Source: Escherichia coli (lineage in GTDB: Bacteria > Pseudomonadota > Gammaproteobacteria > Enterobacterales > Enterobacteriaceae). Taken from it: DNA of 64,000 nucleotides. Made by a program: the position numbers and the translations under genes. The notes beneath the pieces are model-generated. The model did no database searches and had not been told where the DNA came from. It saw nothing but the letters and a program-made list of their open reading frames with translations. The first letter of the stretch is position 1. Each line of letters begins with the position of its first letter. Positions 32,178-34,968 of the stretch are shown here, piece after piece. The stretch is from NCBI RefSeq assembly GCF_044324875.1, contig NZ_CP172185.1; one strand, written 5' to 3'.

Positions 32178-32196
32178 TTGCCAGAATAAGTATCCC

Positions 32197-32229
32197 GCCC
32201 TGCCCGGAGCCATCCCGGTGGGGCTTTTT
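32197..32229 (+). terminator. terminator hairpin downstream of uspG
   Basis: GCCCTGCC...GGTGGGGC stem (two G-U pairs) followed by TTTTTA. Confidence 0.5.
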
Positions 32230-32235
32230 ATTGCC

Positions 32236-32267
32236 ACAAAAAAGCCGCCAGGTTTGACCCCGGCGGC
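32236..32267 (-). terminator. rho-independent terminator of ahpF
   Basis: minus strand reads GCCGCC-GGGGTCAAACCT-GGCGGC followed by TTTTTTGT. Confidence 0.7.
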
Positions 32268-32297
32268 TAAGCAATTGCAGGTGAATCTTACTTCTTC

Positions 32298-33863
32298 TTA
32301 TGCAGTTTTGGTGCGAATCAGGTAGTCAAAAGCACTCAGAGAGGCTTTGGCACCTTCGCCAGTGGCGATGATGATCTGCTTGTACGGAACCGTCGTACAG
32401 TCACCCGCTGCGAACACGCCTTTCACGTTGGTTTCGCATTTCGCATCAATGATAATCTCGCCCATGCGGTTACGTTCGACTGCGCCTTCGAGCCAGTTGG
32501 TGTTCGGCAGCAGACCAATCTGCACGAAAATACCGGCCAGTTCGATGTTGTGAATATCGCCGCTGACACGATCGCGATATTCCAGACCAACGACTTTGCT
32601 GCCGTCGCCTTTCACTTCCGTGGTTTGCGCATTCAGAATAATTTCGACGTTTTTCAGGCTGCGCAGTTTGTCCTGCAGAACCTGGTCGGCTTTCATTTCT
32701 GGCGCAAATTCCAGCAGCGTTACGTGCTCAACGATACCCGCCAGGTCAATTGCCGCTTCCACGCCGGAGTTACCGCCGCCGATAACCGCTACGCGTTTAC
32801 CTTTAAACAGCGGGCCGTCGCAGTGCGGGCAGTAGGTCACGCCTTTGGTGCGATACTGATCTTCGCCCGGAACGTTCATGTTGCGCCATTTTGCACCGGT
32901 CGCCACGATAATGCTGCGTGCTTTCAGTACCGCGCCAGAAGCTGTTTCAATCTGATGCAGGCCACCTTCAACCGCTGCCGGGATCAGTTTGCTGGCGCTC
33001 TGGCTGTCGATCACATCAACGTCGTATTCATCAACGTGAACTTTCAGCGCACCTGCCAGTTTCTGGCCTTCGGTCTTCGGTACAGAAATGTAGTTTTCGA
33101 TATCAACGGTATCGAGGATCTGACCACCAAAACGTTCGCCCATCAGACCGGTACGGATGCCTTTACGTGCGGAGTAAATTGCTGCCGCTGCACCCGCCGG
33201 GCCGGAACCGACGATTAATACGTCATAAGCATCACGCTTGTTCAGCTCTTCTGCCGCACGTTTTTCCGCGCCAGTATCAATTTTGGCGACGATTTCAGTC
33301 AACGTCATGCGACCCTGACCAAACTCTTTCCCGTTTACGAACACTGCCGGAACGCCCATCACGTTGCGATCGGTGATTTCGTTCTGGAAGGTGCCGCCGT
33401 CAATTGCAGTGTGCTTGATGCGCGGGTTCAGTACGCTCATCAGGTTCAGCGCCTGCACCACGTCCGGGCAGTTGTGGCAAGAGAGCGAGTAATAGGTTTC
33501 GAATTCAAAATCACCGTCAATATGGCGAATCTGCTCCAGCAGAGACTGCGCTTCTTTCGACGGATGACCACCGGTCCACAACAACGCCAGTACCAGCGAG
33601 GTAAACTCGTGGCCCAGCGGGGAACCTGCAAAACGTGGCCCCTGGTTAGAACCTGGGTTAGTGATCAGGAAAGACGGCTTACGCACCGGCAAGCTGTTAT
33701 CTTCTTTAAAGGTGACTTTGTCTGACAGTTCTGCGATTTCAGCCAACAGTTCCTTGATTTCTGCCGATTTAGCGCTGTCATCCAGCGTGGCAATTAACTC
33801 AACAGGCTTGGTCAATTTCTCAAGGTAAGCCTTGAGTTGAGTTTTCATATTTGTGTCGAGCAT
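32298..33863 (-). CDS. ahpF: alkyl hydroperoxide reductase subunit F
   Basis: ORF trimmed to MLDTNMKTQ start (521 aa); two redox CxxC centres (CHNCPD, CPHCDG); FAD/NAD GxGxxG motifs. Confidence 0.95.
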
Positions 33864-33885
33864 GTTTATCTCCTGGGCTTTAAAC

Positions 33886-33969
33886 ATCATCATGCAAGCG
33901 GCCTCTGCGGCTACCTGGATGCAGCTTGCATCATGGTGCGGGGAAGAAAATCGGGTGCCGCAGCACCCG
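33886..33969 (-). other. nested hairpins in the ahpC-ahpF spacer (candidate partial terminator/processing structure)
   Basis: 12-bp inverted repeat CATCATGCAAGC...GCTTGCATCATG (33886..33936) and CGGGTGC-CGCA-GCACCCG (33952..33969). Confidence 0.4.
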
Positions 33970-34033
33970 AAGAATTAGGTGAATTTCCGAAGTATTTCGC
34001 GCCGGAGTTGGTAGCGCGAAAGACGAAGGAAAT

Positions 34034-34597
34034 TTAGATTTTACCAACCAGGTCCAGAGACGGAGCCAGAGTTACTTCACCTTCTTTCCATTTAGCCGGG
34101 CAAACTTCACCTGGGTGAGAAGCTACGTACTGTGCTGCTTTGATTTTACGCAGCAGGTCAGACGCGTCACGGCCAATGCCTTCAGCGGTAACTTCGATTG
34201 CCTGGATGATACCCTGCGGGTCAACAACGAAGGTCGCACGGTCAGCCAGACCTTCATCTTCACGCATGTTGTCGAAGTTACGGGTCAGGGCGCCAGTCGG
34301 GTCGCCGATCATCGCATATTTGATTTTAGCGATGGTTTCAGAGCTGCTGTGCCATGCTTTGTGGGTGAAGTGAGTATCGGTAGATACTGCGTATACGTCT
34401 ACGCCCAGTTTCTGCAGTTCTTCGTAGTGGTCAGCAACGTCACCCAGTTCGGTCGGGCATACGAAAGTAAAGTCAGCCGGGTAGAAGAAGAAGACGCTCC
34501 AGCGGCCTTCGGTATCTTTTTCGGTGATTTCGATGAATTCGCCGTTTTTGAATGCCTGGTTTTTAAAAGGTTTAATTTTGGTGTTAATCAAGGACAT
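34034..34597 (-). CDS. ahpC: alkyl hydroperoxide reductase subunit C (peroxiredoxin)
   Basis: 187 aa; peroxidatic Cys motif FTFVCPTE and resolving Cys near the C-terminus. Confidence 0.95.
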
Positions 34598-34968
34598 CTA
34601 TACTTCCTCCGTGTTTTCGATGAGATGTAAGGTAACCAATTTTTGCCGATTCGGCTAATGCGTTTCCATTATCAAATCGATAAGTTTTACCTTACAACCT
34701 TCGTAAGACAACTTTGTGAACTTTGCACCGCCAGCGGCGATAAAAAGTAAAATGGCCCCCTTTCCAGGTGACCGTGTAATCTGAACTACCCTTTGGTATC
34801 TTCAGCGCCTGCCTGCAGGCTGAGGTGTTGCCCTTACAAATGCAACAACGACATGGATTACAACACCCTCATAAACAAAGGGCAATCACCTGATCTAAGC
34901 TCTTACCTATGACAGTGATAGGTTATGCCTTTTACCCGACTTTTGCACTGACTGAAAAGGACAAATTA

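Follow-up and report, generated by a model that had tools for sequence, protein, structure and literature searches.

Few proteins of Escherichia coli are more abundant than AhpC and AhpF, which are its main scavenger of low-level hydrogen peroxide. In the segment of E. coli chromosome analysed here (64 kb in length, and referred to as the window), the gene order is rnk-uspG-ahpF-ahpC-dsbG, and ahpC and ahpF are separated by a spacer for which a first-pass annotation had claimed a high density of palindromic structure. The structure had been read as a sign of regulated read-through or differential mRNA stability, setting the AhpC:AhpF ratio. The locus therefore raises the question of what these structures are, and of whether they act on the transcript, on translation, as DNA signals, or not at all.

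Structure of the ahpC-ahpF spacer

The boundaries originally assigned to the spacer, between the ahpC stop codon and the ahpF start codon, are right (Table 1). In the order of transcription, the ahpC stop is followed by hairpin A, by hairpin B with its U-tract, by hairpin C, and then by the Shine-Dalgarno sequence and start codon of ahpF. The claim of high structure is borne out as well. Folding of the minus-strand RNA gives a minimum free energy (MFE) of -60.4 kcal/mol, compared with a mean of -43.4 +/- 4 kcal/mol for dinucleotide shuffles (z = -4.25), and none of 200 such shuffles folds as well as the spacer transcript. When the hairpins are folded individually and compared with shuffles, the z-scores are -5.2 for A, -5.6 for B and -2.5 for C.

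Table 1. Features of the ahpC-ahpF region. Positions are those of the window, except for the K-12 element, which is given in the K-12 locus (L004).
Feature	Position	Strand	Details
ahpC coding sequence	34034..34597	minus	187 aa; ORF list and annotation in matching E. coli genomes
ahpC stop codon TAA	34036-34034	minus	
ahpC-ahpF spacer	33864-34033	minus	170 nt
Hairpin A	33982..34034	minus	short, internally deleted ERIC/IRU; begins at last base of ahpC stop
Hairpin B stem-loop	33951..33970	minus	UCGGGUGC-UGCG-GCACCCGA; 8 bp, 6 G-C; terminator scan
Terminator U-tract	33943..33950	minus	UUUUCUUC; directly after hairpin B
Hairpin C	33884..33939	minus	RNase III processing hairpin
A/U-rich inverted repeat	33862-33887		ATGTTTA/TAAACAT
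ahpF Shine-Dalgarno AGGAG	33870..33874	minus	6 nt 5′ of ATG; from sequence
ahpF start codon ATG	33863-33861	minus	RefSeq start identical in K-12 and other strains
ahpF coding sequence	32298..33863	minus	521 aa; N-terminus MLDTNMKT
Full ERIC element of K-12	L004:299-427		same ahpC 3′ site

An inverted-repeat scan recovers all three of the repeats that had been reported. The palindromes had been called nested, but they are three independent hairpins arranged in tandem. The supposedly perfect 12-bp repeat CATCATGCAAGC...GCTTGCATCATG is imperfect, because the reverse complement of CATCATGCAAGC is GCTTGCATGATG, while the sequence has GCTTGCATCATG; it really consists of 8 bp, one G.G mismatch and 3 bp, and sits in a longer irregular helix of about 20 positions (hairpin C). 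The CGGGTGC-CGCA-GCACCCG hairpin (hairpin B) is as described, with 8 bp if the flanking T/A pair is included. The TCGCGC...GCGCGA hairpin is also as described, with 9 bp, and is part of a 21-nt imperfect repeat. An Rfam scan of positions 33500-34700 (E <= 10) returned only chance matches, far under the gathering scores, and neither a second copy of hairpin A, B or C nor any ERIC was found in the 64-kb window.

A 7-bp A/U-rich inverted repeat flanks the ahpF Shine-Dalgarno sequence, the GGA core of which is unchanged throughout a 13-sequence spacer alignment, and overlaps the start codon. This repeat is probably a chance occurrence, since its fold is weak (-3.9 kcal/mol, z = -0.45) and confined to Escherichia. 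It does bear on the possibility that the structure acts on translation, with either this AU stem or a CU-rich tract masking the ahpF Shine-Dalgarno sequence or start until the transcript is cut by RNase III. The AU stem would cover both the Shine-Dalgarno sequence and the AUG, and in the MFE structure of the whole spacer, a CUUCC past the terminator is paired to GGAG in the Shine-Dalgarno sequence. However, the CUUCC/GGAG pairing is missing from the centroid and from the 13-species consensus structure, and the AU stem folds no better than shuffles and is unconserved outside Escherichia. A translational mask of this kind is extremely improbable.

A mechanical ORF call lengthens AhpF by 10 codons upstream (531 aa versus the annotated 521 aa), because ATGATGATG, located in the 3′ arm of hairpin C (33885-33893), is in frame with ahpF. 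A conserved mini-ORF or N-terminal extension beginning at ATGATGATG was considered and rejected, since the frame and the stop differ between genera. The frame is that of ahpF in Escherichia, encodes MMMF followed by a stop in Enterobacter, and is out of frame in Citrobacter.

The terminator and the RNase III hairpin

Hairpin B consists of a G+C-rich stem-loop followed immediately by a U-rich tract, the arrangement expected of an intrinsic terminator. It folds with -16.6 kcal/mol and has a 4-nt loop and the tail UUUUCUU. Among the matches listed, hairpin B is present in every Enterobacterales spacer recovered, and the spacers of Pantoea, Providencia, Brenneria, Arsenophonus and Erwinia, which measure 68-79 nt, contain this hairpin and little else. 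In an alignment of 22 Enterobacterales species, pairing is maintained in 95.4% of cells, and four of the eight pairs show compensatory changes on both sides. The observed score was matched by none of 500 shuffles, and slid controls were 30-44% paired. Hairpin B is thus a conserved intrinsic terminator.

Over hairpins B and C, the strain studied here is identical to K-12 in an alignment. The curated K-12 Term-seq 3′ ends of Adams et al. (2021, eLife, PMC7815308, Supplementary file 1) include one at 639668, found in two conditions, and one at 639670, found in one; the conditions used were LB at OD 0.4, LB at OD 2.0 and M63 glucose. These ends are printed with the exact sequence of the hairpin B tail and are classed as 'orphan', not as an ahpC terminator (PMC7815308). 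In window coordinates they are at 33948 and 33946, which places them three to five nucleotides past the hairpin B stem. Term-seq had been suggested as a check in the first-pass annotation, and in K-12, 3′ ends do occur in the spacer. The proposed control of read-through is supported to the extent that transcripts end past hairpin B in K-12; the read-through may be constitutively partial and not regulated. It could be that some of the ends at hairpin B were produced by 3′-to-5′ trimming after the RNase III cut, and not by termination.

In the portion of the Adams et al. (2021) supplementary files available, the table of Rho-termination regions included, ahpF is absent and ahpC occurs once (PMC7815308). 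That single mention concerns an unrelated 3′ end upstream of ahpC. The supplements of PMC9023263, PMC11092163 and PMC12207403 contain nothing on ahpC or ahpF.

Adams et al. (2021, PMC7815308) record an 'orphan' Term-seq 3′ end at K-12 position 638796, 149 nt upstream of the ahpC start, in all three conditions. This end is oriented in the direction of ahpC and maps between dsbG and ahpC, at about position 34746 of the window (minus strand), where the sequence (GGGGGCCATTTTACT followed by TTTT) is identical to that of K-12. On the far side of the operon, the ahpF 3′ UTR is cited as the source of a characterised Hfq-associated sRNA in a Salmonella iRIL-seq paper (PMC10703908). The counterpart of that source region is the ahpF-uspG intergenic region downstream of the ahpF stop (about 32178-32297, minus strand).

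Hairpin B resembles intra-operon attenuator terminators in its G+C-rich 8-bp stem, its 4-nt loop, its U-rich tail and the position of a 3′ end within that tail. Its U-tract is short and interrupted (AUUUUCUU, of which a repaired version would be UUUUUUUU), as expected of a leaky terminator, and termination at hairpin B is probably only partial. In species that have hairpin C, the longest U run after the terminator is 2-4, the tracts being short or interrupted, whereas runs of 6-8 occur in most species without it (Erwinia, Enterobacter sp. Ag1, Arsenophonus, Pantoea stewartii and Brenneria). Because short U runs accompany hairpin C, this comparison, a small sample (L005-L025 and L043) in which kinship is ignored, suggests that the terminator may be weaker where the RNase III hairpin is present.

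Hairpin C folds with -23 kcal/mol into about 20 stacked positions (3+3+8+2+2 bp, with 1x1 mismatches between them). The layout runs 3 bp, C.A, 3 bp, G.G, 8 bp, U.C, 2 bp and so on, and gives a duplex of about two helical turns with tolerated internal mismatches, as found in RNase III substrates. In K-12, the same locus, with identical sequence, is a known RNase III site. Gordon, Cameron and Pfleger (2017, mBio, PMC5371410) compared RNA-seq coverage between wild type and an rnc deletion mutant. One of their sites, 'intergenic (ahpC-ahpF)', is at NC_000913.3:639695, where the mutant has 3,598 reads and the wild type 4, a ratio of 900. It corresponds to L004:487 and, within the upper stem of hairpin C, to position 33921 of the window. 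Purified RNase III also cuts the ahpC-ahpF transcript in vitro (PMC5371410). The half-life of ahpC mRNA is about 14 min in the wild type and about 6 min in the rnc mutant, while the stability of ahpF mRNA is the same in both (PMC5371410). These half-lives, measured on identical sequence, bear out the suggestion of differential stability between the ahpC and ahpF messages. Gordon et al. proposed that, once cut, the ahpC message carries a protective hairpin at its 3′ end, and that cleavage contributes to setting subunit stoichiometry (PMC5371410). The two strains do differ upstream of the RNase III site, where K-12 has a full ERIC and the window strain a short one.

Of 5,426 complete E. coli genomes, 5,421 have the stretch comprising hairpins B and C, 5,076 of them at no less than 99% identity. 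Among the matches listed, hairpin C occurs in Escherichia, Citrobacter, Enterobacter, Leclercia, Superficieibacter and related MAGs, and is absent from Klebsiella sp. BIGb0407, Mangrovibacter, Pantoea, Erwinia, Providencia and others. In 13 Enterobacteriaceae sequences, pairwise identity is 87% in the 5′ arm and 94% in the 3′ arm, compared with 61% in the apical part and with 64.5% and 62.8% at the four-fold sites of ahpC and ahpF, respectively. The arms are under strong purifying selection. They are near-invariant and show no compensatory changes, and the rare changes in the stem break pairs or give G.U. Because compensatory substitutions are lacking, the comparative data point to constraint on sequence and do not alone prove pairing; the structural case for hairpin C rests on the RNase III experiments in K-12.

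Conservation of the arms without covariation is also what would be seen at a DNA site recognised by a protein or by the polymerase. It may be asked, then, whether hairpin C is a DNA signal, either an internal ahpF promoter or a regulator palindrome, with ahpF expressed mostly from its own start and the RNase III cut incidental. At other loci, some RNase III products mimic promoter-derived 5′ ends (Gordon et al., PMC5371410). However, a sigma-70 scan found no promoter-like site on the minus strand of the spacer, and the arms of hairpin C are 24-30 nt apart, a distance variable in length and sequence that suits a hairpin better than a dimer site. Deletion of rnc, moreover, raises read coverage at the apex of hairpin C 900-fold over that of the wild type. 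Because the depletion depends on RNase III to this degree, most of the RNA that crosses hairpin C is transcribed through it and then cut. A DNA signal is an improbable explanation, and hairpin C is better regarded as an RNase III processing site.

ERIC-like sequences at the ahpC 3′ end

Hairpin A has a 7-bp outer stem (AAUUUCC/GGAAAUU) around a 9-bp inner stem (UUUCGCGCU-like/GCGCGAAA) and folds with -19.1 kcal/mol. At the identical site, K-12 carries a full ERIC of about 127 nt, and alignment places the extra 75 nt or so exactly within hairpin A. This K-12 element shows the ERIC hallmarks of a 7-bp terminal inverted repeat and a flanking TA, matches the ERIC-PCR primers ERIC1R and ERIC2 at 20/22 and 21/22 positions in the expected head-to-head arrangement, and is dispersed, occupying a median of 8 places in E. 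coli genomes and at most 15. Hairpin A retains nucleotides 1-18 and 109-129 of this element around a 16-nt centre. Like ERIC/IRU repeats, a multicopy family dispersed between genes, it has the shared terminal inverted repeat and outer arms, lies at a transcribed intergenic site and adjoins a TA. Unlike those repeats, which are imperfect palindromes of about 127 bp, it is only 53 nt long and is without the central core that the ERIC-PCR primers target; the best primer matches in the spacer of the studied strain are 13/22 and 11/22. Because both ends of the K-12 element are kept and the core is gone, hairpin A is best described, by sequence comparison, as an ERIC-derived deletion form and not as a full member of the family.

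ERIC or IRU repeats are attributed to Sharples & Lloyd (1990), Hulton et al. (1991) and Wilson & Sharp (2006) in PMC2229807 and PMC10969869. According to the same sources, Yersinia ERICs at gene 3′ ends are reported to change mRNA stability through RNase E (PMC2229807, PMC10969869). In its ERIC nature, hairpin A belongs to a repeat family known since 1990-91. Hulton et al. reportedly list an ERIC at the ahp locus.

The length of the spacer varies within E. coli, as found by a megablast search of the region against 5,426 complete genomes. The short ERIC allele is present in about 2,537 genomes (approximately 47%, the count being 4,301 - 1,764) and the full ERIC allele in 1,764 (approximately 33%). 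A third allele, of the O157:H7 type, is found in 1,142 genomes (approximately 21%) and has no ERIC; an unrelated 22 nt (GTTCCGCAATCGCGTAATTAAT) lies between the ahpC stop and hairpin B (L002:365-390). The ahpC 3′ UTR accordingly measures 44 nt (-22 kcal/mol) with no ERIC, 86 nt (-36 kcal/mol) with the short form and 160 nt (-63 kcal/mol) with the full form. Since 1,142 genomes are without it, hairpin A is dispensable within E. coli. In one DH5alpha assembly (NZ_CP045741.1, 4339483-4339714), the query of 301 nt matches over its first 158 nt alone (49% covered), unlike in other K-12 derivatives. This spacer may have been rearranged locally or hold an insertion, or the assembly may be faulty there.

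Other genera have repeats at the same place, at about 2065-2200 in each locus among the matches listed. A full ERIC lies just past the ahpC stop in Citrobacter werkmanii, Enterobacter sp. Bisph1, Superficieibacter and one MAG (L007, L008, L013 and L018), a short one in E. albertii and another MAG (L006 and L011), and a tiny relic in Citrobacter sp. FP75 (L009). In Enterobacter asburiae, Leclercia and strain RIT691 (L010, L012 and L015), REP-like palindromes occupy this position. The cross-genus genome scan gave no Salmonella ahpC-ahpF locus among the matches listed. Because full, short or relic ERICs or REP-like palindromes are found there depending on the genus, the position directly 3′ of the ahpC stop is a hot spot for small mobile repeats across genera of the Enterobacteriaceae. 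At this site, the K-12 and Superficieibacter ERICs are 92% identical, compared with an average of about 63-65% at four-fold sites of the flanking genes.

The presence of stable hairpins between cistrons recalls the REP/BIME intercistronic stabilisers, which are thought to shield upstream mRNA from 3′ exonucleases and thereby skew operon expression (Higgins et al. 1982, PMC3184786). The spacer of the studied strain differs from these in that the REP consensus is absent, REP-like palindromes being found there only in other genera.

It might be supposed that none of the hairpins has a role in ahpCF expression, and that all are passive leftovers of mobile repeats (ERIC, REP-like or MITE) which accumulated where an intergenic site tolerated them. 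The ERIC derivation of hairpin A, its lack in the O157:H7-type genomes and the varied repeats found after the ahpC stop in different genera would agree with this view. Hairpins B and C, however, occur in a single place per genome among complete E. coli genomes, and so are not dispersed repeats; such a status was considered for hairpin C in particular and is ruled out on this ground. The covariation of hairpin B extends far past the genera that carry ERICs, the arms of hairpin C are strongly constrained, and both have mapped RNA ends or cleavage in K-12. As an account of the whole spacer, passive relics are very improbable, and this reading holds for hairpin A only.

Expression of AhpC and AhpF from one promoter

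The spacer is very probably a series of three elements on the ahpCF transcript: the leaky terminator B, the RNase III site C and the ERIC relic A. Transcription driven by OxyR from the ahpC promoter would first meet the terminator, where a share of the RNA would end as monocistronic ahpC mRNA. In RNA that reads through, RNase III would cut within hairpin C. The products would be an ahpC fragment, guarded at its 3′ end by hairpins A and B, and an ahpF mRNA that has a short leader. The former would then outlive uncut ahpCF RNA, while the ahpF mRNA would decay at its own rate. The outcome would be an excess of AhpC over AhpF from a single OxyR-controlled promoter. Hairpin A, a remnant of an ERIC inserted at the TA of the ahpC stop, would have no dedicated regulatory role and would contribute at most extra 3′ UTR structure.

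Several of these steps have been demonstrated in K-12 on identical sequence, namely the 3′ ends at hairpin B, RNase III cleavage at hairpin C both in vivo and in vitro, and the effect on ahpC half-life. These data are likely to mean that the ahpC 3′ end is shielded by hairpins A and B, and that the leaky terminator and the RNase III site together set the protein ratio of AhpC to AhpF. The initial interpretation of the spacer, as a place of partial read-through and differential mRNA stability, was essentially right and is already published. Since both the terminator and the RNase III site at ahpC-ahpF were already mapped in K-12, the studied strain adds no new mechanism, and the finding is real but ordinary.

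The ERIC alleles present a separate issue. It is rather unlikely, although conceivable, that the three alleles change ahpC mRNA stability or terminator read-through. If they do, the AhpC level or the AhpC:AhpF ratio would vary heritably between E. coli lineages by way of a mobile-repeat polymorphism. The polymorphic ERIC relic could provide a natural allelic series for examining 3′ UTR effects.

The production of far more AhpC than AhpF from one promoter is a textbook-like example of how an operon sets the stoichiometry of its products. The hairpin B terminator is ancient in the Enterobacterales. The RNase III hairpin is a younger one, and its sequence is conserved in the Escherichia-Citrobacter-Enterobacter group. 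It may be that in this clade the RNase III hairpin and a weakened U-tract evolved together, as a single module for stoichiometry.
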